DNA from: a virus
Taxonomy: Duplodnaviria > Heunggongvirae > Uroviricota > Caudoviricetes
IMG/VR virus record: IMGVR_UViG_2695420708_000010
DNA: 9,602 bases
Strand: one strand, 5' to 3'
In this document: one piece after another, positions 1 to 9,602 of the stretch
How the letters are laid out: every line of letters starts with the position of its first letter
How positions within the stretch are numbered: position 1 is the first letter of the stretch
Made by a program: the position numbers and the translations under genes
Notes under the pieces: model-generated
The model's database searches: none
Seen by the model: the letters and a program-made list of their open reading frames with translations, nothing else
Told to the model about the DNA's origin: nothing

Positions 1-167
1 AAGAACAAATGGTAGTGTCCGCTATTGCCAGTACACCTCAGGGTATAAGGGGTTATGGCCACCGGACTACCAAACGGCTGCCAGCCCTCTTTCAGTTTAT
101 GTGTCAGCTTTTCCGCAAGATCTGACGGCGGCGCCGCCCTGACAACATCATAGTGTTTAAATGCCAT
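1..167 (-). CDS. Partial hypothetical ORF running off the left window edge (5' end inside, 3' end outside); begins MAFKHYDVVRAAPPSDLAEKLTHKLKEGWQPFGSPVAITPYTLRCTGNSGHYHLF
   Basis: Own minus-strand translation: ATG at 167..165 with GGTGGA about 9 nt upstream; frame stays open for 55 codons to position 3. Absent from the supplied ORF track because it has no in-window stop. Competes with the plus-strand ORF 9..125. Confidence 0.3.
   Translation of the reverse strand, partial: MAFKHYDVVRAAPPSDLAEKLTHKLKEGWQPFGSPVAITPYTLRCTGNSGHYHLF
3..40. repeat. Left arm of terminal inverted repeat (38 bp, perfect reverse complement of 9565..9602)
   Basis: Reverse complement of 9565..9602 equals 3..40 base for base; match ends at 41 versus 9564; the right arm reaches the window edge, so true length is unknown. 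Confidence 0.9.
9..125 (+). pseudogene. 38-aa ORF whose first 10 codons (MVVSAIASTP) match the start of the 9366..9596 gene at the opposite window end, then diverge; probable gene-start remnant
   Basis: ATG at 9..11, stop TGA at 123..125; the first 30 coding nt lie inside the terminal inverted repeat. Confidence 0.25.
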
Positions 168-360
168 GGTTCTTTCCACCATCTGAAAAATAATTCTTTA
201 AAATACCTGACATGTAATACAGAAAAAACACAAAACCATACCTTAAATAAAAACCTGATTATCAAGCAGATATGCATGGATAAACTACAAGACGAGATAT
301 AAACCACCCTGCATTTAAATAAACAATAAACAACATCAGAAAAATAATTCTGCTCTATGG

Positions 361-387
361 TTTACATTCAAAAATATCATTTATACT
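361..387 (+). promoter_or_regulatory. Candidate sigma70 promoter for ORF 428..763 (TTTACA, 15-bp spacer, TATACT)
   Basis: -35-like TTTACA at 361..366 and -10-like TATACT at 382..387, about 40 nt upstream of the ATG; RBS AAGGAA precedes the ATG at 428. Confidence 0.4.
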
Positions 388-427
388 TTTCAGAACATCA
401 CCAGCAAGGCATAAACAAGGAAACTAA

Positions 428-763
428 ATGAAGTGGATTGTGATTGATACAGTTATCCAGCCATCATGCGGAATATCTTTTTCAGTCATATGGAGTAAAA
501 TAAAATTAATAATCTGGTATCAATCGGATGCTTTCTTACCTCCTGAAAGTATATTTACACTGACTCACACAGGCATCATGCTCAATAACAAAGTGCTACC
601 TGTAACCATTTACAACGTAGTACCATTCAATAAAACATTCTGGAATTCAATCAAAAATAGCCAGGAATGCCCTACAAATACAGATAACGTATTGAATGAA
701 TGCTTTAATAACCGTTGCACTCTGCAAATATGTCCTTATGGACTAAAACAACAAAGTCCATAA
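428..763 (+). CDS. Hypothetical 111-aa protein, AT-rich, four Cys in the C-terminal 30 residues; no family recognised
   Basis: ORF track; ATG with AAGGAA RBS about 8 nt upstream and a candidate promoter; opposite orientation to all neighbouring genes; identical second copy at 3672..4007. Confidence 0.45.
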
Positions 764-797
764 GGAGTTTACTCACATCTGACAAAATCAATATAAA

Positions 798-819
798 CAG
801 CCCCTCCGGAGAGGGGCTG
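798..819. terminator. Perfect 9-bp stem, 4-nt loop hairpin (CAGCCCCTC-CGGA-GAGGGGCTG); intrinsic terminator for minus-strand transcription, possible 3' end for ORF 428..763
   Basis: On the minus strand the hairpin is followed by a U-rich tract (TTTATATTGATTTTG); on the plus strand there is no T tract after it. Confidence 0.5.
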
Positions 820-1012
820 GAGAGTGGCGCTATGTGCCATTGCATGGTGCCGGGTGCCTCCCGGTGAATTCAGTACCAGCACCTGAATCCGCGATTATCC
901 CATATACCTACTCGCTGATTGCCCCTCCGCACAGGGGGATTCACCATGCCAGTTTCTTTTAACAAACTCCCCGCAAAACAGACAACTGTCAACCGTCTGA
1001 ATTGTGAGACAT

Positions 1013-1040
1013 TTAAAAAAAAGGCCCGCAAAAGCGAGCC
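1013..1040 (-). terminator. Rho-independent terminator immediately downstream of the Arg-UCU tRNA
   Basis: Minus-strand RNA GGCUCGC-UUUU-GCGGGCC (7-bp stem with one G-U pair) followed by eight U. Confidence 0.7.
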
Positions 1041-1054
1041 AGGGAAAATAAGTG

Positions 1055-1131
1055 TGGCGCGTTGTACTGGATTCGAACCAGTGACCGATTGCTTAGAAGG
1101 CAATTGCTCTGTCCGGCTGAGCTAACAACGC
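1055..1131 (-). tRNA. argO: tRNA-Arg, anticodon UCU (reads AGA), 77 nt with encoded CCA
   Basis: Hand-folded cloverleaf: acceptor GCGTTGT/ACAACGC, D stem GCTC/GAGC, anticodon stem ATTGC/GCAAT with loop CTTCTAA, T stem ACTGG/CCAGT with loop TTCGAAT. Symbol assigned from memory of the Stx-phage ileZ-argN-argO cluster; not verified. Confidence 0.88.
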
Positions 1132-1144
1132 ATGATGCAGATAA

Positions 1145-1221
1145 TGGACCGCCATCGGGGACTTGAACCCCGCGCAGCCAGCTTCGAAGGCTGGCGCTCT
1201 TTCCTGATGAGCTAATGGCGG
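1145..1221 (-). tRNA. argN: tRNA-Arg, anticodon UCG (reads CGA/CGG), 77 nt with encoded CCA
   Basis: Hand-folded: acceptor CCGCCAT/ATGGCGG, D stem GCTC/GAGC, anticodon stem CCAGC/GCTGG with loop CTTCGAA, T stem CGGGG/CCCCG with loop TTCAAGT. Unusual 5' C. Symbol from memory; not verified. Confidence 0.8.
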
Positions 1222-1228
1222 TATGTGA

Positions 1229-1304
1229 TGGTGGCCCTTGCTGGATTTGAACCAGCGACCTGGCGATTATGAGTCGCTCGCTCTCACCACTGAGCTAAAG
1301 GGCC
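1229..1304 (-). tRNA. ileZ: tRNA-Ile2-like, anticodon CAU (ileX/ileZ type, presumably lysidine-modified to read AUA), 76 nt with encoded CCA
   Basis: Hand-folded: acceptor GGCCCTT/AAGGGCC, D loop AGTGGTGA, anticodon loop CTCATAA, T loop TTCAAAT. Resembles E. coli ileX as I recall it; Met versus Ile cannot be settled from sequence alone. Confidence 0.85.
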
Positions 1305-1344
1305 GGGAGCCGCATAATAACGACGCGTAATTAATTCTTCAATA

Positions 1345-2403
1345 TCATCCGTTCTGGCTGACTAAATCCTGTACTTCCCGAACCGTCTGCTCAAAACGTT
1401 CAGTCTCCAGCTCAACGCCAATTGCACGACGCCCGAGCGCCAGTGCCGCTTTCACTGTCGAACCCAACCCCATGAAAAAATCTGCAATCAGGTCACCCGG
1501 ACGACTGCTAGCGCTGATTATCTGCTGCAGCATTTCTGCCGGTTTTTCGCACGGATGTTTCCCGGGATAGAACTGCACCGGTTTATGCGTCCACACATCG
1601 GTATACGGCACCTGCACCGTCACGCCAAAATACCGCCGCAGATGTTTATATTCACTCAGCAGCTCCGCATACTGCCGGTTCAGTGAGGTATACGTATCCA
1701 CCAGCTGGTGGTGGAGCTTTTCCAGTTCACCACGCCGATGCTTCTCTTCTGCCACCCGGGCAAACAGCGCCTGTAATTTCAGATAATCGCTTTCATTCGG
1801 CAACTGCCACTGACCGGCACTGAACCAGTGCGACACCATGTTTTTCTTTCCTGTGGCATCTGCAATCTGTTTTGCCGTTATCCCCAGGGCAGCTCGCGCA
1901 TCACGAAAGTAAGAAATCAGCGGGGCCATCACATGCTGTTTCAGTGCACTGCCCTTCGCCGCATACCCGGCATCTTTCGGACGATACGGCCCCTGATAAT
2001 GTTCCGCGAACAGAATGCGCTCTGTGGCGGGGAAATACGCCCGCAGGCTTTCCTTGTTGCATCCGTTCCAGCGTCCGGACGGCTTCGCCCAGATAATATG
2101 GTTCAGCACACTGAAGCGTTCACGCATCATGATTTCGATATCAGATGCCAGGCGATGACCACAGAACAGGTAAAGACTTCCGGCAGGTTTCAGCACCCGC
2201 CAGAACTGCGCCAGACACTGGTCCAGCCACTTCAGGTAATCATCGTCGCCCTTCCACTGGTTATCCCAGCCCTCAGGCTTCACTTTAAAGTACGGCGGGT
2301 CCGTGACTATCAGGTCAACAGAATTTTCGGGTAACGACCGGATAAATTCCAGGCAGTCGGCGTTGATTAACTCACAACTGGATATTTTTACAGTATTAAG
2401 CAT
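1345..2403 (-). CDS. DNA methyltransferase, beta-class N6-adenine or N4-cytosine (N6_N4_Mtase family), 352 aa
   Basis: ORF track. Motif IV DPPY (VDLIVTDPPYF) precedes the AdoMet motif I (DFFMGLGST), the order that defines beta-class amino-MTases; C-terminal HPCEKP...ASSRPGD block resembles YhdJ-type enzymes. ATG start, weak SD. Confidence 0.9.
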   Translation of the reverse strand: MLNTVKISSCELINADCLEFIRSLPENSVDLIVTDPPYFKVKPEGWDNQWKGDDDYLKWLDQCLAQFWRVLKPAGSLYLFCGHRLASDIEIMMRERFSVLNHIIWAKPSGRWNGCNKESLRAYFPATERILFAEHYQGPYRPKDAGYAAKGSALKQHVMAPLISYFRDARAALGITAKQIADATGKKNMVSHWFSAGQWQLPNESDYLKLQALFARVAEEKHRRGELEKLHHQLVDTYTSLNRQYAELLSEYKHLRRYFGVTVQVPYTDVWTHKPVQFYPGKHPCEKPAEMLQQIISASSRPGDLIADFFMGLGSTVKAALALGRRAIGVELETERFEQTVREVQDLVSQNG

Positions 2404-2435
2404 GGATCATTAAGCCTGTCTCTGATAGGCTCATT

Positions 2436-2454
2436 CTGCTTTTGCGCAAAGCAG
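2436..2454. promoter_or_regulatory. Imperfect palindrome CTGCTTT-TGCGC-AAAGCAG about 33 bp upstream of the methyltransferase start; candidate operator or 5'-UTR hairpin
   Basis: 7-bp inverted arms around a 5-bp centre; no U tract, so not a terminator. Confidence 0.35.
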
Positions 2455-2495
2455 TGGGCCTGAGGTTTGCTTGTGAACCCAACGCATGAGCAGAT

Positions 2496-2526
2496 GGCTG
2501 GTGGGTGCCCCTAACACCCACCAGCC
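2496..2526. other. Perfect 12-bp stem, 7-nt loop hairpin (GGCTGGTGGGTG-CCCCTAA-CACCCACCAGCC) between ORF 2554..2751 and the methyltransferase
   Basis: Arms are exact reverse complements; not followed by a U tract on either strand; function unknown. Confidence 0.5.
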
Positions 2527-2537
2527 GCCCATTTACC

Positions 2538-2566
2538 ACAAATAAAAAAGCCTTCACTGCGGAAGG
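2538..2566 (-). terminator. Rho-independent terminator overlapping the stop codon of ORF 2554..2751
   Basis: Minus-strand RNA GCCUUC-CGCAGU-GAAGGC followed by UUUUUUAUUUG. Confidence 0.65.
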
Positions 2567-2751
2567 CGTCTGTAACAACCGAACTGATAGTCTGCCAGAC
2601 CCGCCATAACCAGCTGGGTCAGTATTAACTGGCAGCGTTCGCGTGAAAGGTAAGTATTCTGCGCTATCTCCCCGACTGTCGCCGGTTCGGTAACGCTTAA
2701 TTCATTAAACACCACTCTGGCGGTTTCTGTCATATCCTGCTGTTTTAGCAT
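2554..2751 (-). CDS. Hypothetical 65-aa protein with a helix-turn-helix-like segment (TVGEIAQNTYLSRERCQLILTQL); possible small DNA-binding regulator
   Basis: ORF track; ATG at 2751..2749 with AAGGAAAAG RBS; ends in a terminator; lies just upstream of the methyltransferase. Confidence 0.5.
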   Translation of the reverse strand: MLKQQDMTETARVVFNELSVTEPATVGEIAQNTYLSRERCQLILTQLVMAGLADYQFGCYRRLPQ

Positions 2752-2869
2752 GTCTTTTCCTTTTCCGGTTAACGTGACACACCAATAACTCTTGTCGAAA
2801 AAGCCAGCAAGCTGAAAGACAGGTATTCACCGCCACCAGCGCGTTTACTGTACTGACGCGATTTCAGTC

Positions 2870-2896
2870 ATAAAAAACCCGCTCGGCGGCGGGTTG
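2870..2896 (-). terminator. tR'-like terminator, second copy (identical to 5209..5235)
   Basis: Minus-strand RNA A-CCCGC-CGCCGA-GCGGG-UUUUUUAU; lies inside the 2870..3394 repeat block. Confidence 0.7.
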
Positions 2897-2942
2897 TAGA
2901 AACTCTTCTAACGTCAGGCATAAAACGCCCATAGTTATGACG

Positions 2943-2970
2943 AATTTACCACAGATTCCGGAAAAATCAA
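2943..2970 (-). promoter_or_regulatory. PR'-like late promoter, second copy (identical to 5282..5309)
   Basis: Same sequence as the promoter downstream of the intact Q gene, offset 2339 bp. Confidence 0.4.
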
Positions 2971-2975
2971 CCTTG

Positions 2976-3394
2976 TTACCTAGTTACCTTTTTTAACTGC
3001 CGCTCAGCCCATGCTTCTTCAATATCAAACCGGGTCACCAGCGCATCATAAAATTTCTTAACTGTTTTTTCCCATGACGCGCGTGTTATCTGGTTTGTCA
3101 CCTCGCATATAGCATTAAATGCCTCCGTTGATGGTAGTCTTTCATAGCCACGACCACCACAACGCTGGCAGTCTCTGATAACAGGCATACCACGTTTTAC
3201 CGACTCTTCACGATGAATGGCGACACCACGCCCACGGCAATCCTTACAGGCGGTGGAAACCTCACCCTTTCCGCCACACTCCGGACAGGCAACTTTTACC
3301 ACCTCCCTGACTTTTTTCCATTCTTCCCAGTAAGACGGATACACACCTTTCGTACACTTTGCCCATACCGGCGGCTTACCATCCGGATACTGGA
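2976..3394 (-). pseudogene. 3' fragment of a Q-like antiterminator gene (C-terminal ~139 codons with the CxxCxGxG zinc-finger repeats), fused at 3394/3396 to the AT-rich module
   Basis: 2870..3394 matches 5209..5733; the intact gene's N-terminal ~134 codons are missing. The 191-aa track ORF 2976..3551 takes its first 52 codons from AT-rich module DNA with a GTG start and no SD. Confidence 0.8.
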
Positions 3395-3604
3395 AAGTGT
3401 TTAAATGCCATGGTTCTTTCCACCATCTGAAAAATAATTCTTTAAAATACCTGACATGTAATACAGAAAAAACACAAAACCATACCTTAAATAAAAACCT
3501 GATTATCAAGCAGATATGCATGGATAAACTACAAGACGAGATATAAACCACCCTGCATTTAAATAAACAATAAACAACATCAGAAAAATAATTCTGCTCT
3601 ATGG

Positions 3605-3631
3605 TTTACATTCAAAAATATCATTTATACT
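3605..3631 (+). promoter_or_regulatory. Candidate sigma70 promoter for ORF 3672..4007 (copy of 361..387)
   Basis: Identical sequence to copy A. Confidence 0.4.
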
Positions 3632-3671
3632 TTTCAGAACATCACCAGCAAGGCATAAACAAGGAAACTAA

Positions 3672-4007
3672 ATGAAGTGGATTGTGATTGATACAGTTAT
3701 CCAGCCATCATGCGGAATATCTTTTTCAGTCATATGGAGTAAAATAAAATTAATAATCTGGTATCAATCGGATGCTTTCTTACCTCCTGAAAGTATATTT
3801 ACACTGACTCACACAGGCATCATGCTCAATAACAAAGTGCTACCTGTAACCATTTACAACGTAGTACCATTCAATAAAACATTCTGGAATTCAATCAAAA
3901 ATAGCCAGGAATGCCCTACAAATACAGATAACGTATTGAATGAATGCTTTAATAACCGTTGCACTCTGCAAATATGTCCTTATGGACTAAAACAACAAAG
4001 TCCATAA
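3672..4007 (+). CDS. Hypothetical 111-aa protein, second copy identical to 428..763
   Basis: ORF track; identical translation; same RBS and promoter. Confidence 0.45.
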
Positions 4008-4041
4008 GGAGTTTACTCACATCTGACAAAATCAATATAAA

Positions 4042-4063
4042 CAGCCCCTCCGGAGAGGGGCTG
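4042..4063. terminator. 9-bp stem hairpin, copy of 798..819
   Basis: Identical sequence to copy A. Confidence 0.5.
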
Positions 4064-4287
4064 GAGAGTGGCGCTATGTGCCATTGCATGGTGCCGGGTG
4101 CCTCCCGGTGAATTCAGTACCAGCACCTGAATCCGCGATTATCCCATATACCTACTCGCTGATTGCCCCTCCGCACAGGGGGATTCACCATGCCAGTTTC
4201 TTTTAACAAACTCCCCGCAAACCAGACAACAGTCAACCGCCTGAATTGTGAAGTATTTAAAAATTTCTCCCGCTAACTGATACCCGG

Positions 4288-4374
4288 CTAACAGTCTGGC
4301 GTTTTCTTTTTCAGCAACGGGAAAGCAACAACCACCACACCCGCCACCAGCACACCGTCAGCCAGCACTGACAT
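4288..4374 (-). CDS. Candidate 28-aa hydrophobic peptide (MSVLADGVLVAGVVVVAFPLLKKKTPDC), single predicted TM segment then a basic tail
   Basis: Own translation; ATG at 4374..4372, stop TAG at 4290..4288; only a weak GGA SD; below the ORF-track size cutoff. Confidence 0.25.
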   Translation of the reverse strand: MSVLADGVLVAGVVVVAFPLLKKKTPDC

Positions 4375-4454
4375 TATCCGGCTGCTGCAATGCCATTCAC
4401 AAAAACAGTAAGCAATCACTTTTTACCGTAACAGGTGATAATCCAGATATGTAT

Positions 4455-4781
4455 CTACCCCAGATGAGTAATCCGAAGTTCATCCATACCACAGGTCCTG
4501 GCTATTCTGTTGTACTCCTGAACAAGAGCAAATAATTCTGAATTAGCAACCATGAACTCATCGCAAACCCTCTGTATAGCATCACTATTCAGAATAATAA
4601 CGTCTCTTCCCGAAAGACGATCAGGAGTACAGAACAAAACTGTCAAACGGCTGAAGGCCTTTGCTCGTGCTGCATTGACTATATCAATACGCTGCCTAAG
4701 GATGAAACACCCCGACGCCTCATCAATATTCACTCTACCCACACCATATGAATGATAAATATTTAATGCTGAAAAAACCAT
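4455..4781 (-). CDS. Hypothetical ~108-aa protein (117 aa from the TTG at 4808); no family recognised
   Basis: ORF track 4455..4808 begins at TTG; first ATG is at 4781..4779; no convincing SD for either start; sits directly downstream of the tRNA cluster on the late strand. Confidence 0.3.
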   Translation of the reverse strand: MVFSALNIYHSYGVGRVNIDEASGCFILRQRIDIVNAARAKAFSRLTVLFCTPDRLSGRDVIILNSDAIQRVCDEFMVANSELFALVQEYNRIARTCGMDELRITHLG

Positions 4782-4918
4782 TAGACCGTATAACAAACAC
4801 TCAATCAATACTTAACAGAACTTTTATTTTTGACAAACATAAAATATTTTCAACAATATCCTGAGCCAGGTATATTTCAGTATAAGGCTCTGCCGGAAGG
4901 AATCTGGAAGAATGAATA

Positions 4919-4995
4919 TGGCGCGCTGTACTGGATTCGAACCAGTGACCGATTGCTTAGAAGGCAATTGCTCTGTCCGGCTGAGCTAACAACGC
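4919..4995 (-). tRNA. argO: tRNA-Arg, anticodon UCU, 77 nt; differs from the 1055..1131 copy by one acceptor-stem change giving a U-G pair
   Basis: Same hand-folded cloverleaf as 1055..1131; plus strand reads GCGCTGT where the other copy reads GCGTTGT. Confidence 0.85.
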
Positions 4996-5008
4996 TGAAT
5001 ACCGATAA

Positions 5009-5088
5009 TGGACCGCCATCGGGGACCCGCCCCCGCACCAACAACCCTGTTATCATGTCGTCTGCTCTTCCTGATAAGCTAATGGCGG
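5009..5088 (-). pseudogene. Degenerate tRNA-Arg-like element: acceptor stem and D arm conserved, anticodon arm, variable loop and T loop replaced
   Basis: The 5' ~25 nt and 3' ~17 nt align with the intact Arg-UCG tRNA at 1145..1221; the middle (AGACGACATGATAACAGGGTTGTTGGTGCGGGGGCGGG) gives no anticodon stem-loop by eye and the T loop lacks TTC. Confidence 0.55.
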
Positions 5089-5095
5089 TTTGTGA

Positions 5096-5171: not shown

Positions 5172-5208
5172 GGGAGCAGAATAATAACGGTCCGTAATTA
5201 ATTCCGCA

Positions 5209-5235
5209 ATAAAAAACCCGCTCGGCGGCGGGTTG
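5209..5235 (-). terminator. tR'-like rho-independent terminator between the Q-like gene and the tRNA cluster
   Basis: Minus-strand RNA A-CCCGC-CGCCGA-GCGGG followed by UUUUUU; about 80 nt downstream of the Q stop. Confidence 0.7.
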
Positions 5236-5281
5236 TAGAAACTCTTCTAACGTCAGGCATAAAACGCCCATAGTTATGACG

Positions 5282-5309
5282 AATTTACCACAGATTCCGG
5301 AAAAATCAA
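5282..5309 (-). promoter_or_regulatory. PR'-like late promoter (-35 TTGATT, 16-bp spacer, extended -10 TGgTAAATT); would give a ~65-nt transcript ending at tR'
   Basis: Hexamers at 5309..5304 and 5287..5282 on the minus strand, immediately after the Q stop codon (5315..5317). Confidence 0.4.
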
Positions 5310-5314
5310 CCTTG

Positions 5315-6136
5315 TTACCTAGTTACCTTTTTTAACTGCCGCTCAGCCCATGCTTCTTCAATATCAAACCGGGTCACCAGCGCATCATAAAATTTCTTAA
5401 CTGTTTTTTCCCATGACGCGCGTGTTATCTGGTTTGTCACCTCGCATATAGCATTAAATGCCTCCGTTGATGGTAGTCTTTCATAGCCACGACCACCACA
5501 ACGCTGGCAGTCTCTGATAACAGGCATACCACGTTTTACCGACTCTTCACGATGAATGGCGACACCACGCCCACGGCAATCCTTACAGGCGGTGGAAACC
5601 TCACCCTTTCCGCCACACTCCGGACAGGCAACTTTTACCACCTCCCTGACTTTTTTCCATTCTTCCCAGTAAGACGGATACACACCTTTCGTACACTTTG
5701 CCCATACCGGCGGCTTACCATCCGGATACTGGATCTTGTTTGTAAAAACCTCGCTTTCAATAAATTTTTTTCCGTGACAGCAGGGGCACTGTTTTTTGCT
5801 CGCCGCGCTACGGGCATAATCTTCAAACGCATACGAAGCCATAATACGCATCACTGCCGGTTTTATTTCTGCCGGGAGTTTTCTTAACGCCGCCACGCGA
5901 TCACACCGACTGAGTGCATATTCTGTCAGCAATTCTGTTGCCCGCTCTCTGTCATTCATACTAATGCCCATTTTCCCAAGGAACGCAGAAACCCCCATCT
6001 CAGCCCGATTCTGTGTCATGCCCTGCGCGGCCATCACATCAGTGATACTCAGCGCATCTTTCGACGTTGAGGCCGATGCATCAGTCAGGCCGGGGGATTT
6101 TGGGGAGTAGTATTTCGGTAAATCTTCCAGTTTCAT
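5315..6136 (-). CDS. Antitermination protein Q-like, 273 aa, with DnaJ-type CxxCxGxG zinc-finger repeats
   Basis: ORF track; position between rusA and PR'/tR'/tRNAs is the canonical lambdoid Q position; ATG overlaps the rusA stop (ATGA); motifs CPCCHGKK, CPECGGKG, CKDCRGRG, CQRCGGRG. Family assignment rests on synteny and motifs, not a search. Confidence 0.75.
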   Translation of the reverse strand: MKLEDLPKYYSPKSPGLTDASASTSKDALSITDVMAAQGMTQNRAEMGVSAFLGKMGISMNDRERATELLTEYALSRCDRVAALRKLPAEIKPAVMRIMASYAFEDYARSAASKKQCPCCHGKKFIESEVFTNKIQYPDGKPPVWAKCTKGVYPSYWEEWKKVREVVKVACPECGGKGEVSTACKDCRGRGVAIHREESVKRGMPVIRDCQRCGGRGYERLPSTEAFNAICEVTNQITRASWEKTVKKFYDALVTRFDIEEAWAERQLKKVTR

Positions 6137-6513
6137 TTTTTGACCTGCCCTTCAAGCATTATGGGATAAATCTTCACCCCCAGACGTCCACCAGATACTG
6201 GCTGAGCACGAACGATATTGATTTCATCAAACTGCTCATCGTCCATTAGCAACCCCGCATGCGTCAGCGCATCCAGCGGCGCTTTCAGAATATTGTCCAG
6301 GTCACGGCGGCGCTTATCCGGTGGTTCTGCAATAATTTTTATTGCCAACCTTCCGGACAGGCTTAATTTCAGCCGCTGCTGGCGAACAATAAGCGCCACT
6401 GCCCGGCGATAACGCTCCCCGGCTTTTGATACAAAATATGTGCTGCCACGACGACGCCAGTAAGTGTTCACCGTCGGCGGGTAAGGTAAAACAAATTCTA
6501 TGCGCTCGGTCAT
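6133..6513 (-). CDS. rusA: Holliday-junction resolvase RusA, 126 aa
   Basis: ORF track; shows the RusA-family DxxRRRDLDN motif as I recall it; usual nin-region position just upstream of Q. Confidence 0.88.
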   Translation of the reverse strand: MTERIEFVLPYPPTVNTYWRRRGSTYFVSKAGERYRRAVALIVRQQRLKLSLSGRLAIKIIAEPPDKRRRDLDNILKAPLDALTHAGLLMDDEQFDEINIVRAQPVSGGRLGVKIYPIMLEGQVKK

Positions 6514-7572
6514 TTATGCTTTCCACTTCAGAACACCCGAATTTCTCGCGTGCATTAAAAAACGAATCAGCAACAACAGCTGACTGCCGTGTTTCTCTTC
6601 AAAATCTTTTACTCCGGCATGTAGTTCGTTACGGCATTTACGGCATAACGGAATAACAAACAAATCATCAGCCTTTGTTCCCATCCCTCCCAGTCCATGA
6701 CCAATGATGTGATGCGGATCATCTGCCTGATTGCCACACGTCATGCATTTCTGCGTTTTTACCCAGCGCGTGTATACAGGCATCTCTTCCCGTTGTGATT
6801 TCTGGCGCTGGAGATACTGAGCCGGTGACTCCGGATCAACGGCAATGCTGACCACCGTCTTTTCCTGTGGTGGGTTCTGTTGCTGGTGGACGTGAGGCAG
6901 TAACGCAATATTTTTTGTGCGCTGCTTCAGTATGCTGGTGGCTGTCTGCTCTCCCGGTATGATGTCGCTTTCACTGTACACAGAGCGAATTTTTTCCGCA
7001 CGCAACCCCAGCGAACGACGTAATACCGCTTCCGGTAGCGCGTCCGCCACCTGATTGCGGACCGCCCACCAGGATAATTCAGCCAGAGATAATTCACGCT
7101 CCTGCGTACCGCTTATTGCGTGACCGATGACGTCAATCATCCATGCTGACAGGTTTTGATGAGCAAGTTGCTCGAGTGATTCGGATGTCTGGTCACGCAG
7201 CTGGTTGTCGCAGTGCCAGCACAACACCATTGCGCCGGTACCATAACGGTGAATGACGGTTTCGCTGTGATGATAATCGCCGTGTGGCCACTGGCAGGAT
7301 TTAATATGGCGCAACAGCCAGTCAGACAATGCACCAGCACCACCAGCAGCACGAATCACCCGTGCGTTACTGAAAAACGGCAGCAATGTTTTGTCTTCCA
7401 CCAGCGGCTGGCGAGCGGCAGGAACGACCCCGGACGGCAGATTACGCATGCTTTTTGGTTCCGGCTCCACCAGTATTCTGCCGTTATGGAATGCTGACAT
7501 TGATTCACGGCCTGGCTTAACGATAACCAGACCGAGTTCCGGTACCAGAACAGGTCGAAGTAATACCCGCAC
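6514..7572 (-). CDS. DUF968-like prophage protein (YdfU-like), 352 aa, with a Cys/His-rich C-terminus (CMTCG...DPHH...CRKC)
   Basis: ORF track; GTG start at 7572 with GGAGG 5 nt upstream; family assigned from memory of Qin-prophage ydfU neighbourhood and motifs. Confidence 0.7.
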   Translation of the reverse strand: MRVLLRPVLVPELGLVIVKPGRESMSAFHNGRILVEPEPKSMRNLPSGVVPAARQPLVEDKTLLPFFSNARVIRAAGGAGALSDWLLRHIKSCQWPHGDYHHSETVIHRYGTGAMVLCWHCDNQLRDQTSESLEQLAHQNLSAWMIDVIGHAISGTQERELSLAELSWWAVRNQVADALPEAVLRRSLGLRAEKIRSVYSESDIIPGEQTATSILKQRTKNIALLPHVHQQQNPPQEKTVVSIAVDPESPAQYLQRQKSQREEMPVYTRWVKTQKCMTCGNQADDPHHIIGHGLGGMGTKADDLFVIPLCRKCRNELHAGVKDFEEKHGSQLLLLIRFLMHARNSGVLKWKA

Positions 7573-7573
7573 A

Positions 7574-7852
7574 TTACCTCCAGATCCGTTGCTGGAATGT
7601 GCGGGACGGACGCGTTGGCCGTTCGGAGTAAGGGAGCCTGACGGAGATTATCCAGTGACGGTAGTCGAGGCTAAGGGCTTTTTTAACCTCGCATCCGCGC
7701 CTGCGGTAACACTGAATGAGCCATTCGGCCTGTTCTTCAGTGCATGGGGGATGCTGGTACCAATCAGATTTAAATGCGTGAGAGCGCCGCCCGTGCCTGC
7801 TGGCAAAGACGGCTGAATTATCAGAATTGTGTAGTCTGGAATTTTGCGCCAT
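7574..7852 (-). CDS. Hypothetical 92-aa protein
   Basis: ORF track; ATG with GGAG SD about 8 nt upstream; stop one base before the DUF968 start codon. Confidence 0.5.
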   Translation of the reverse strand: MAQNSRLHNSDNSAVFASRHGRRSHAFKSDWYQHPPCTEEQAEWLIQCYRRRGCEVKKALSLDYRHWIISVRLPYSERPTRPSRTFQQRIWR

Positions 7853-7918
7853 CGGCTTTCTCCGGTGGCACAGTGTTACTCAACAGGGGTTCAGCCCTGC
7901 GCTGAATTGTAGATGAAT

Positions 7919-8179
7919 TCACTCATCTTCAAAAGCAGAAAAACCAGCCTTAATCCCAGCTTCTTTCAGAGACGGCAACGATGTGACAAATTCATTTGCA
8001 CGCGAAATAAAACCATCCGTCACAAGCCCATCCACAAAATGAATTAACGCAGCTCCACTCTTCCTTTGTTGAGACTGTAAACATTTAATACGGCAGTGGC
8101 TGACAATAGCGCCATTCTCAACGCGCACAGTATAGAGGCCATCTTCACTAAAAATTTCACGTAATTCTTCGATTTTCAT
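7919..8179 (-). CDS. Hypothetical ~86-aa protein (possibly Rem-like, by position only)
   Basis: ORF track 7919..8182 starts at TTG; the ATG is at 8179..8177 with GGAAGGA about 9 nt upstream. The Rem suggestion rests only on the ydfU-rem-hokD gene order of the Qin prophage. Confidence 0.5.
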   Translation of the reverse strand: MKIEELREIFSEDGLYTVRVENGAIVSHCRIKCLQSQQRKSGAALIHFVDGLVTDGFISRANEFVTSLPSLKEAGIKAGFSAFEDE

Positions 8180-8300
8180 CAACAGAATCCTTCCAGATAA
8201 ATAGCACTCCCCTGTTCGGGGTCCATCCCTCTTCTCCCTGCGCGCTACTTAAGTATTTTTGATTCTATTCCGGCACCATCTAAAACTTCAAACGCGTTGA

Positions 8301-8329
8301 AAATAAAAACAAAAACCCGCCGAAGCGGG
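8301..8329 (-). terminator. Rho-independent terminator downstream of hok (UUCG tetraloop hairpin plus U tract)
   Basis: Minus-strand RNA CCCGC-UUCG-GCGGG followed by UUUUUGUUUUUAUUU. Confidence 0.7.
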
Positions 8330-8399
8330 TTAAGTGTGGGTGCATTGAGGATGCCTGACCCATCAGAGGTGGCGAGGGATTTCTCCCCCGCCTGGTCTC

Positions 8400-8555
8400 T
8401 TACTCCTCAGGTTCGTAAGCTGTGAAGACAGCGACCTCCGTCTGGCCGGTTCGAATTCGTACCTCGCAGAGGTCTTTCCTCGTTACCAGTGCCGTCACTA
8501 TGACGGTTAAACAGATGACGATCAGGGCGATTAACATCGCCTTTTGCTGCTTCAT
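8400..8555 (-). CDS. hokD: Hok/Gef-family type I toxin, 51 aa (HokD/RelF-like)
   Basis: MKQQKAMLIALIVICLTVIVTALVTRKDLCEVRIRTGQTEVAVFTAYEPEE is a classic Hok sequence and matches HokD as I recall it; ATG at 8555..8553 with AGGAG 9 nt upstream. The track ORF 8400..8612 is an in-frame 19-codon upstream extension. Confidence 0.88.
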   Translation of the reverse strand: MKQQKAMLIALIVICLTVIVTALVTRKDLCEVRIRTGQTEVAVFTAYEPEE

Positions 8556-8766
8556 AGCCTGCTTCTCCTTGCCTTTCGGCACGTAAGAGGCTAACCTAGA
8601 TTTGCCGTTCATAGATTGAGCCTCAGATTAATGTTAAGCGTCTTGCCGGACGCGTAATGTTAACTGGGGCTTTTCTCTATCTGCCTTTTGGTGTTCATGC
8701 CTGAGACAGATAGCCTCAAGCACCCGCTGCAATTCTACTTAACTCTCCTTTTCCCGCAAACCGTTT

Positions 8767-8850
8767 TTATCCCCAGCGGCAAATCGAATACACCACCAGC
8801 GCCACCGCCATCGCAATTCCTACCGTTGTTAATGCTTCAGGCCAGGTCAT
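8767..8850 (-). CDS. Candidate 27-aa hydrophobic peptide ([27 protein letters not shown])
   Basis: Own translation; ATG at 8850..8848 overlaps the stop of the upstream 114-aa gene (ATGA); GGAGGA about 9 nt upstream; below the ORF-track size cutoff. Confidence 0.35.
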
Positions 8851-9191
8851 CGTAAAATATCCTCCACGCTTATCAGTCCGTTCCGCTCCAGATAACTCAT
8901 CGCCTTATCCGGTAATTTGCAGTCTGGCTTCGCTTTTCTCAGTTGCCAGGTTAACTGCTTTACCAGCATGGTTAACTCATCGACCAGACGCTGATATCCC
9001 ACTGGTTTGTATTCATGCAATTTACCGGCTGGCTCTGCTGCCAGCGATACCAGTGCGATTTCCAGAACAGCAATATCCATCTTATATGTGCGGATGATGT
9101 CATGGTCGATTGTGCCCGGTATGCACAGTCTCTGTGCTTCAATAGTCTCCTCTGCGTGAGCTATTAACTGCTCTCTGGTAAAAGTCGTCAT
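8847..9191 (-). CDS. Hypothetical 114-aa protein
   Basis: ORF track; start overlaps the stop of the upstream 55-aa ORF (ATGA); N-terminal half resembles that ORF. Confidence 0.55.
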
Positions 9192-9355
9192 GCCGTAGCC
9201 CCTTCTTGATATTTTTCAAACCAGAACACAACCGGCTCTGCTTCCAGCGATGCCAGCGCAATCCGTGCCAGTTCCATTTGTTCACCACGGGTAAGCCCGT
9301 TTTCAAGCGGGTTTTTAATGAACAATTCAATACGTTCTTTGGTAATAGTGGTCAT
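9188..9355 (-). CDS. Hypothetical 55-aa protein, paralogous to the N-terminal half of the 114-aa ORF
   Basis: Own translation ([55 protein letters not shown]); AAGGAG SD 7 nt upstream; the track reports the overlapping out-of-frame ORF 9139..9330 instead. Confidence 0.5.
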
Positions 9356-9365
9356 GTGTTACTCC

Positions 9366-9596
9366 TTAACCCGCAGTGCTTTCAACTGATGAGGGGAACA
9401 AAATCTTTTCATCAAACCCTGCATTCATATCATGAACAGCAACACACCAATCCATCGACGAACGATTATCAAGAGCCTCCATGATTTCATCCATGCGGCG
9501 TAGGTCATACAGGTAAATGCTTTTATCGCCAATGGTGTAAAAGCCAATTTTTTTCGGTGATGGATGAGGTGTACTGGCAATAGCGGACACTACCAT
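9366..9596 (-). CDS. Hypothetical 76-aa protein; start codon and first 10 codons lie in the right terminal inverted repeat
   Basis: ORF track; ATG at 9596..9594; upstream region is outside the window. A plus-strand ATG at 9564 opens an outward frame (MRCTGNSGHYHLF) in the same region. Confidence 0.45.
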   Translation of the reverse strand: MVVSAIASTPHPSPKKIGFYTIGDKSIYLYDLRRMDEIMEALDNRSSMDWCVAVHDMNAGFDEKILFPSSVESTAG

Positions 9597-9602
9597 TTGT
9601 TC
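9565..9602. repeat. Right arm of terminal inverted repeat (reverse complement of 3..40)
   Basis: See left arm. Confidence 0.9.

Follow-up and report, generated by a model that had tools for sequence, protein, structure and literature searches.

Two questions are raised by this locus: whether an 868-bp stretch that occurs twice in the window (the whole 9,602 nt of DNA that was analysed) is a mobile module carrying an orphan gene, and how it came to be there twice. The original prediction described an AT-rich repeat of about 870 bp in two copies without differences over about 825 bp, and self-comparison at an offset of 3244 bore out its extent, positions 152-977 being the same as 3396-4221 over 826 nt with zero mismatches. 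The copies then mismatch at 978, 987, 996 and 1008-1010, and all likeness is gone after approximately 1019/4263. The adjacent tRNA clusters, which had been described as diverged, do differ, with 91-94% mutual identity. AT-richness holds for 169-790 (GC 0.325) but not for 791-1019, where GC (0.515) equals that of the surroundings (0.515). The 868-bp unit consists of the first 16 nt of a DUF1737 gene (152-167), which form its left end, an iraL cassette, and the gene for the STnc100 sRNA, which is the GC-rich right end and lies on the minus strand. The repeat is a segment of a lambdoid prophage from between the Q/tRNA region and the DUF1737 and lysis genes. Its features are as follows.

169-798, plus strand: iraL cassette, copy 1, 630 bp, GC 0.325, bounded on one side by the STnc100 terminator and on the other by the DUF1737 start codon
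361-395, plus strand: putative iraL promoter, with a -35-like TTTACA (361-366), a -10-like TATACT (382-387) and a start at A395
428-763, plus strand: iraL copy 1, predicted RssB anti-adaptor of the IraM family, 111 aa, NCBIfam NF007393
789-978, minus strand: STnc100 copy 1, Rfam RF02076, convergent with iraL
3396-4263, plus strand: repeat copy 2, with 16 nt of the DUF1737 gene (3396-3411), iraL (3672-4007, plus strand) and STnc100 (4033-4222, minus strand)

The expected 111-aa ORF was present on the plus strand of both copies, at 428-763 and 3672-4007, but the description of it as an orphan without similarity was overturned. Since a Pfam search of the 111-aa protein gave no match at E≤0.01, NCBIfam was needed to identify it; model NF007393 matches residues 1-110 with 162 bits (cutoff 121). 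The protein is identical to CFT073 IraL (WP_000871291.1) at 110 of 111 residues and to K-12 IraM at 61% over 107 aa, and its N-terminal domain matches PDB 8TWD, "Anti-adapter protein IraM", with an E value of 6e-31, again pointing to the IraM/IraL family. Cysteines are found at residues 14, 81, 92, 97 and 102, so that the four anticipated in the last 30 residues fall within the last 31. The exact protein is also encoded by complete S. sonnei genomes, and 4,016 index blocks list this variant. Judged by these matches, the ORF is IraL, a characterised RssB anti-adaptor, rather than an orphan.

IraL (formerly YcgW) belongs to the IraM/IraL/RssC family of RssB anti-adaptors and was described in CFT073 and S. 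sonnei (Hryckowian et al., mBio 2014, PMC4045071), where it stabilises RpoS by binding RssB. The start of its mRNA was mapped by 5′-RACE in the same study (PMC4045071, section 7), and the published sequence is matched exactly over 30 nt by the window at 395 and again at 3639. Since the published start maps to these positions, iraL is predicted to have its own promoter here, as had been proposed, which supports the view that the ORF is a real gene, independently transcribed against phage late transcription. The promoter hexamers TTTACA and TATACT were assigned by reading the sequence. [quoted passage not shown]

The window and CFT073 share the same iraL mRNA 5′ end and promoter region and the same prophage slot, which in CFT073 belongs to the potB prophage, with the order Q, tRNAs, DUF3927, STnc100, iraL (antisense), DUF1737 and holin. 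They differ in a single residue (L74S in the window), in one base of the 5′ untranslated region (ACTA versus ACCA before the ATG), and in that iraL occurs twice in the window. K-12 IraM (b1160), which adjoins the e14 prophage and is induced by Mg2+ starvation, shares the four C-terminal cysteines and the NCBIfam model, but its allele, genomic context and promoter differ, and at the DNA level only the coding region is alike, at 70%. Differences between IraL and IraM in regulation and in their mode of RssB contact have been reported in the literature. A PhoP box in the iraL promoter, on the model of K-12 iraM, was considered and dropped, the two alleles having no upstream similarity.

The two copies of the sRNA gene score 133.6 and 132.4 bits against Rfam RF02076 (gathering score 47), over model positions 1-206. 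A 9-bp stem hairpin had been noted downstream of the ORF, and a terminator scan found it at 798-819, with nine pairs, seven of them GC, and the minus-strand tail TTTATATTGA. The T-run lies on the minus strand and there is none on the plus strand, for which reason the hairpin was assigned to STnc100 rather than to iraL; it is the predicted intrinsic terminator of STnc100. STnc100 is a prophage-borne sRNA related to PasD and in Stx2 phages follows stx2 at a distance of 75 nt (bioRxiv 10.64898/2026.05.13.724894; PMC12370729). As in those phages, the window matches the full-length model and places the gene after the Q/tRNA (or stx) slot and before a DUF1737/nanS-p gene, but here the iraL cassette is wedged between STnc100 and the DUF1737 gene. 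Weak Rfam matches to Plastid-ycf2 (on the tRNA antisense strand), sR55 and isrK (25.7 bits) were dismissed as below their gathering scores.

The origin of the two copies was examined by per-base comparison with S. sonnei, in which the parts of the window belong to two prophage remnants, locus A and locus B. The remaining features are assigned to these loci where known.

1-40, no strand: outermost 40 nt of IS600 (IS3 family), on the side beyond the transposase stop, interrupting the DUF1737 gene
3-167, minus strand: DUF1737-family gene cut by IS600, Pfam PF08410, 57.7 bits
1055-1304, minus strand: tRNA cluster of locus A type, tRNA-Arg(tct), tRNA-Arg(tcg) and tRNA-Met/Ile(cat), by ARAGORN
1345-2403, minus strand: phage DNA adenine methyltransferase (locus A), Pfam PF01555, 144 bits
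2976-3394, minus strand: Q′, the final 139 codons (C-terminal part) of antiterminator Q, with no difference from that part of full-length Q
3395, no strand: junction J, one base A that matches neither Q nor DUF1737, with TGTTT microhomology beside it
4288-4419, minus strand: small DUF3927 gene, 43 aa (locus B), via S. sonnei sequence L005 10617-10748 (PF13064), 100% identity
4919-5171, minus strand: tRNA cluster of locus B type, in which ARAGORN and Rfam find only two tRNAs
5315-6136, minus strand: full-length antiterminator Q of locus A type, 273 aa, Pfam PF03589, 179 bits
9565-9602, no strand: outermost 38 nt of another IS600 copy, from the same side of the element but inverted

Read from left to right, the window is a patchwork in the order B-A-B-A: 1-977 from locus B, 978-3394 from A, 3396 to about 5208 from B, and 5209-9602 from A. 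Segments 1-977 and 3396-5054 are 100% identical to locus B, and 795-3394 and 5209-9602 are 99.85-99.95% identical to locus A (99.95% for 5209-9602 in strain 53G). The tRNA cluster region at 1055-1304 is 100% identical to locus A, where the exact methyltransferase protein also occurs. The DUF3927 gene is missing on the copy 1 side, and comparison of the locus B tRNA cluster with intact copies identified a decayed homologue of the middle tRNA-Arg at 5009-5090. The two loci lie 665-780 kb apart in the same complete S. sonnei genomes (1.86 versus 2.53 Mb in CP104423.1, 1.32 versus 2.10 Mb in 53G, and 1.83 versus 2.49 Mb). In about 20-30 complete S. sonnei genomes inspected around the two loci, each has one iraL, and locus A is without it, having STnc100, other sequence and then NanS-p. 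Draft S. sonnei scaffolds also combine A and B pieces at the same locus.

The window ends on the left at the IS600 junction of locus B and on the right at that of locus A, and the left IS600 segment is the reverse complement of 9565-9602. The terminal 40-mer occurs in 2,667 E. coli genomes, where it adjoins annotated IS600 transposase. The exact IS600/DUF1737 junction was found at all ten S. sonnei iraL loci compared, the truncated DUF1737 gene being called as 57 aa beside IS600 in S. sonnei genomes (L005-L014), and the right junction was exact in six of six locus A sequences.

Three joints within the window depart from the reference loci, at 840-1020, at 5195-5320 and at J; none of them was present in 28 fetched loci, where every other adjacency was found. 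Two of them fall within exact repeats that A and B have in common, and J lies exactly at the end of such a repeat. The proposal that one edge of the repeat is the breakpoint that truncated Q was correct: identity of Q′ to full-length Q stops at 3394 and identity to the repeat begins at 3396. Q′ has the same family matches as the Q C-terminus, and 2870-2975 repeats the region downstream of Q, 2870-3394 being the same as 5209-5733 (self-identity at an offset of 2339). The base between, 3395, is A where both parent sequences have T, and its equivalent at 5734 is the first difference between A and B after an identical run of 343 nt. Two draft contigs (L025 and L027) begin exactly at the base equivalent to 3394. 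J was found neither in 5,426 complete E. coli genomes nor in IMG/VR, the GTDB species representatives or JGI metagenomes, and the gene index held none of the J-spanning products (191, 181 and 177 aa on the minus strand, and a 63-aa ORF on the plus strand). A 122-aa Q′ product is indexed, but solely from contigs whose first base is the break base or in which Q is frameshifted. As candidate genes, the chimeric 191-aa ORF (2976-3551) and a second ORF, orf117 (4455-4808), were rejected, neither having a family match and both being unannotated in CFT073 and ST131-type records.

Because the joints lie inside, or at the end of, exact repeats shared by A and B, they carry the signature of a chimera, and the second copy is most likely the product of an assembly that combined two distant S. 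sonnei prophage remnants. A short-read contig ending in IS600 copies would have become a repeat-induced assembly or scaffolding chimera, with A and B threaded together via the exact repeats common to both loci; the duplication is probably an artefact of this kind. Two properties of the window count against such an origin: it contains no N, and A3395 occurs in neither parent. For both reasons a simple end-to-end merge of two contigs would not reproduce the window exactly. A de Bruijn contig normally cannot hold an exact repeat of 826 nt twice, so that a repeat-resolution or scaffolding step must be assumed. Short-read assemblies of IS-rich Shigella genomes can thread distant prophage remnants together in this way.

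An unlikely alternative is a real rearrangement, private to one S. sonnei isolate, in which the remnants recombined at their shared STnc100 and downstream-of-Q segments. On the same reading, an illegitimate join of nucleotide 16 of the DUF1737 gene to the middle of Q, through TGTTT and one untemplated base, might then have led to a partial tandem duplication. The continuity of the sequence, without N, is in its favour, and 5 nt of microhomology with one orphan base at J is often seen at real illegitimate joints. Heavy rearrangement around IS elements is typical of Shigella genomes, and inverted IS600 copies border the window on both sides. Multiple copies also have precedent: region 169-790 was found in 1,446 of 5,426 complete E. 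coli genomes, nearly always at full length and at 1,608 places, with approximately 10% of the iraL-bearing genomes holding two or three copies, and JJ1886 was reported with two (PMC4045071). However, three non-reference joints would be needed within 9.6 kb, and the breakpoint would have to fall by chance on the first base that differs between A and B after the 343-nt run, where draft contigs break as well. J was seen nowhere else among the genomes, viruses, metagenomes and gene indexes searched, despite the dense sequencing of S. sonnei, and the duplicated segments are 100% identical, as when the same graph edges are used twice. If the rearrangement were true, the strain would hold two intact copies of iraL and STnc100 together with a second downstream-of-Q region, and would represent a naturally occurring difference in gene dosage through which RpoS levels in log phase could rise, albeit a minor variant of a known RpoS regulator.

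It is very improbable that gene conversion homogenised two iraL copies which had separated long ago and lay in the late regions of neighbouring prophages. This would account for 100% identity over 826 nt beside tRNA clusters that are 91-94% identical, but locus A in complete S. sonnei genomes has no iraL to convert, each of the two copies is an exact match to the one locus B sequence, and J is left unexplained. Of the origins first suggested for the repeat (recent duplication, gene conversion or mobility), mobility is contradicted. The identity of the copies on which they were based stands, and the assembly duplication that had been named as a refutation is probable.

Evidence on mobility came from the ends of the unit. 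Homology of copy 1 to the CFT073, ST131-type and S. sonnei prophages crosses the apparent edge at 152 and continues to position 38 or 1, and homology of copy 2 crosses the edge at 4263 and continues to about 5213. The left edge thus exists only in copy 2, at the Q breakpoint, and the right edge only in copy 1; both dissolve into continuous prophage homology, so that what recurs is a contiguous conserved phage region rather than a unit with constant ends. Self-repeat comparison reported no terminal inverted or direct repeats at the edges, inspection by eye revealed no direct repeats or target-site duplication flanking the unit, and the ORF list, NCBIfam and Pfam gave no recombinase inside it, iraL being its sole coding content. 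STnc100 without iraL makes up most phage matches, about 100 phage records matching STnc100 alone and only four matching the iraL part, and one syntenic slot holds the iraL unit in 1,431 E. coli genomes. By its ends and content, the 868-bp unit is neither discrete nor, as far as the sequence allows this to be judged, mobile. Insertion of a discrete element twice, cutting Q at one insertion, would fit identical copies between differing flanks, an end at a gene truncation, and an iraL cassette present or absent among phages, but is already contradicted, and is the least probable reading of all, since the unit lacks terminal repeats, visible flanking repeats and a recombinase, has each end in one copy while the other copy is continuous with ordinary prophages, cuts a gene start on one side, contains an sRNA gene distributed independently of iraL, and keeps to a single slot. 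A perfect repeat beside diverged flanks had mimicked recent mobility, and is better explained by remnants that share short exact repeats.

The unit that truly varies between phages is, by alignment, the 630-bp iraL cassette at 169-798, limits that were set by comparison with phage PhiR5_1 and S. sonnei locus A. In PhiR5_1 the flanks, which are homologous to window 38-168 and 799-1019, have an unrelated 233 bp between them, and locus A departs from the window between approximately 814 and 168. Lambdoid morons are accessory genes that have been inserted among the conserved genes of a phage and are transcribed independently of them. The cassette resembles them in being AT-rich, in having a predicted promoter of its own, in being present or absent between conserved flanks, and in being carried by an induced phage (vB_EcoS-640R1). 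iraL, STnc100 and their placement in lambdoid prophages have already been published, and multi-copy iraL strains are known. Unlike a typical moron, iraL opposes late transcription and has no clear terminator of its own, sharing instead the hairpin of STnc100.

The original prediction of a repeat holds: positions 152-977 equal 3396-4221 at an offset of 3244, with no mismatch over 826 nt. Beyond this run there are six mismatches (978, 987, 996 and 1008-1010) and similarity ends after about 1019/4263, giving two copies of an 868-bp unit (copy 1, 152-1019; copy 2, 3396-4263). The tRNA clusters, described as diverged, share 91-94% identity. The 111-aa ORF was found on the plus strand of both copies with its C-terminal cysteines at residues 81, 92, 97 and 102, and one edge of the repeat coincides with the truncation of the antiterminator gene Q (3394/3396). 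The described AT-richness was seen for 169-790 (GC 0.325) but not for the right-hand 230 bp (GC 0.515, equal to the surroundings); this GC-rich part is the sRNA STnc100. The left 16 nt (152-167) open the coding sequence of a gene of the DUF1737 family (Pfam PF08410).

Features of the repeat, and Q
428-763 and 3672-4007, plus strand: 111-aa ORF, iraL
789-978, minus strand: STnc100, copy 1, full length, Rfam RF02076, 133.6 bits (gathering score 47)
4033-4222, minus strand: STnc100, copy 2, full length, Rfam RF02076, 132.4 bits (gathering score 47)
2976-3394, minus strand: Q', truncated copy of Q
5315-6136, minus strand: Q, full length

The ORF is not the orphan gene it was taken for, since it matches both a known IraM-family model (NCBIfam NF007393, 'anti-adapter protein IraM'; 162 bits, cutoff 121) and a characterised protein. 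With K-12 IraM it shares 61% identity and all four of the C-terminal cysteines; it also matches the solved N-terminal domain of IraM (PDB 8TWD) and is identical at 110 of 111 residues to the CFT073 potB prophage protein, the RssB anti-adaptor IraL that Hryckowian et al. characterised (PMC4045071). IraL sequesters RssB, whereby RpoS escapes ClpXP, and strains with several iraL copies, such as JJ1886, have already been reported (PMC4045071). A promoter of its own, as predicted, is experimentally supported because the published 5′-RACE transcript start (PMC4045071) is exactly present at 395 and 3639. The precomputed annotation of the contig index assigns IraL (428-763) to Pfam PF11183 (PmrD), whereas hmmscan against Pfam-A gave no match at E≤0.01, a discrepancy that may come from differing versions or from a true distant kinship of IraM and PmrD.

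STnc100 is a prophage sRNA, kin to PasD, and in Stx2 phages it lies immediately downstream of stx2 (bioRxiv 10.64898/2026.05.13.724894; PMC12370729). The nine-pair hairpin described after the ORF does exist (798-819), but its T-run lies on the minus strand, and it is therefore the terminator of STnc100 rather than of iraL. All components of the repeat are previously described. Some prophages have a further, diverged STnc100-like element (∼72% identity) a few hundred bp away from the first (at ∼9850-10150 of comparison locus L019, which is locus A of Shigella sonnei 53G, and at 4608-4836 of comparison locus L030); it may correspond to the PasD/STnc100 relationship of the 2026 preprint (bioRxiv 10.64898/2026.05.13.724894).

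These components do not form a discrete module. In CFT073, an ST131-type prophage and S. sonnei, homology passes both edges of the 868-bp unit, crossing 152 in copy 1 to position 38 or 1 and 4263 in copy 2 to ∼5213, over DUF3927 and tRNAs; each edge is therefore present in one copy only, and the repeat is part of a contiguous conserved phage region without discrete ends. At the edges of the unit, terminal repeats were not reported and target-site duplications were inspected by eye only; no recombinase is found among the ORFs of the unit. Its STnc100 and iraL halves are distributed independently, with about 100 phage records matching the STnc100 part alone and only 4 the iraL part. On these grounds a mobile module is essentially excluded.

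The truly variable unit is a 630-bp cassette, 169-798. In phage PhiR5_1 and at locus A, one of two S. sonnei prophage remnants, the flanks are homologous, with the STnc100 terminator on one side and the start codon of the DUF1737 gene on the other, but the sequence between them is unrelated. Of 5,426 complete E. coli genomes, 1,446 have the iraL cassette (1,608 places, at most 3 per genome), in nearly every case at full length and in one constant slot, and induced phages such as vB_EcoS-640R1 carry it too. It behaves as a classical moron, opposed to late transcription. Judging from this anatomy, iraL would be transcribed during lysogeny from its own σ70 promoter; upon induction, Q-modified late transcription, arriving from the side of Q, would not stop at the STnc100 terminator but continue across iraL in antisense, probably silencing it. 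Binding of H-NS to the iraL region is plausible given its AT-rich composition.

Complete S. sonnei genomes encode proteins identical to the window's IraL (variant S74) and to its methyltransferase, but each at a locus of its own, and within the same genomes these two loci lie 665-780 kb apart. The window was compared base by base with these two remnants, loci A and B.

Source loci in S. sonnei and their match to the window
Locus A: IS600, 76-aa ORF ... hok, DUF968, RusA, Q (273 aa), orf65, methyltransferase, three tRNAs, STnc100, (IS600), NanS-p
Locus B: IS600, DUF1737', iraL, STnc100, DUF3927, tRNAs, Q (284 aa), RusA, IS21
CP104423.1: locus A at 1.86 Mb, locus B at 2.53 Mb
53G: locus A at 2.10 Mb, locus B at 1.32 Mb
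GCA_965230885.1: locus A at 1.83 Mb, locus B at 2.49 Mb
1-977: locus B, 100% identity
978-3394: locus A, 99.85% identity (measured over 795-3394)
3395: orphan base, in neither locus
3396-5054: locus B, 100% identity, with two polymorphic SNPs beyond, up to 5208
5209-9602: locus A, 99.95% identity
Joint 1: switch from B to A within the exact shared run 848-977 (STnc100)
Joint 2: switch from B to A within the exact shared run 5209-5308
Joint 3: junction J, 3394/3396, joining Q' to copy 2

An 8-nt indel at the Q stop codon (5309-5316, equivalent to 2970-2977) separates locus A (273 aa) from locus B (284 aa), and both window copies are of the locus A type. IS600 ends form both termini of the window, with the locus B junction at the left and the locus A junction at the right, which suggests that the window represents one complete short-read contig broken at IS copies. 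Positions 1-40 and 9565-9602 correspond to a single terminus of IS600 (IS3 family), the two occurrences being inverted relative to each other, and the IS end supplies the start codon of the 76-aa ORF at the right (9366-9596).

The three adjacencies are absent from all 28 fetched loci. J lies precisely where a 343-nt stretch identical in A and B stops, the first A/B SNP (5734) being the equivalent of 3395, and its base is the exact first base of contigs in two public, N-gapped S. sonnei draft scaffolds that mix A and B pieces (GCA_001255415.1 and GCA_001249935.1); the region is a recurrent scaffolding hazard in S. sonnei drafts. J was not found in complete E. coli genomes (n = 5,426), IMG/VR contigs, GTDB representatives or JGI metagenome contigs, and no gene products spanning it were indexed.

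The duplicated repeat is probably a repeat-induced assembly or scaffolding chimera of loci A and B, since the contig ends in IS copies, its source loci alternate, the switches lie inside exact shared repeats with J at a branch point of the graph, the duplicated segments show no difference from each other, and J does not recur although the species has been sequenced densely. A genuine private rearrangement is rather unlikely; it would accord with a window sequence free of N, with the notoriously rearranged genomes of Shigella, and with the TGTTT microhomology at J and its one base (A) absent from both parents, which a simple contig merge fails to explain. Gene conversion between the iraL copies is, like the mobile module, essentially excluded. 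The finding is an ordinary one, its most striking aspect, the duplication, being probably artefactual.

Elsewhere in the window, a hok/sok type I toxin-antitoxin locus occupies 8400-8725 on the minus strand.

8400-8612, minus strand: Hok ORF, its homologue in related prophages annotated hokD
8550-8725, minus strand: sok, Rfam RF01794, 112 bits

Between hok and an 87-aa ORF (7919-8182) lies a sub-threshold Rfam match to isrK, a Gifsy-1 prophage sRNA (8310-8391, minus strand; 25.7 bits, gathering score 50). Q, including Q', contains a zinc-finger segment of the DnaJ type (CXXCXGXG); in Pfam the match to the DnaJ central domain is just sub-threshold, and NCBIfam DnaJ and anti-TRAP matches are weak. 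In the second tRNA cluster, the middle tRNA (5009-5090, minus strand), homologous to tRNA-Arg(tcg) at 1145-1221 and to an intact CFT073 copy, is decayed and recognised by neither ARAGORN nor Rfam; S. sonnei locus B carries the same decayed sequence.
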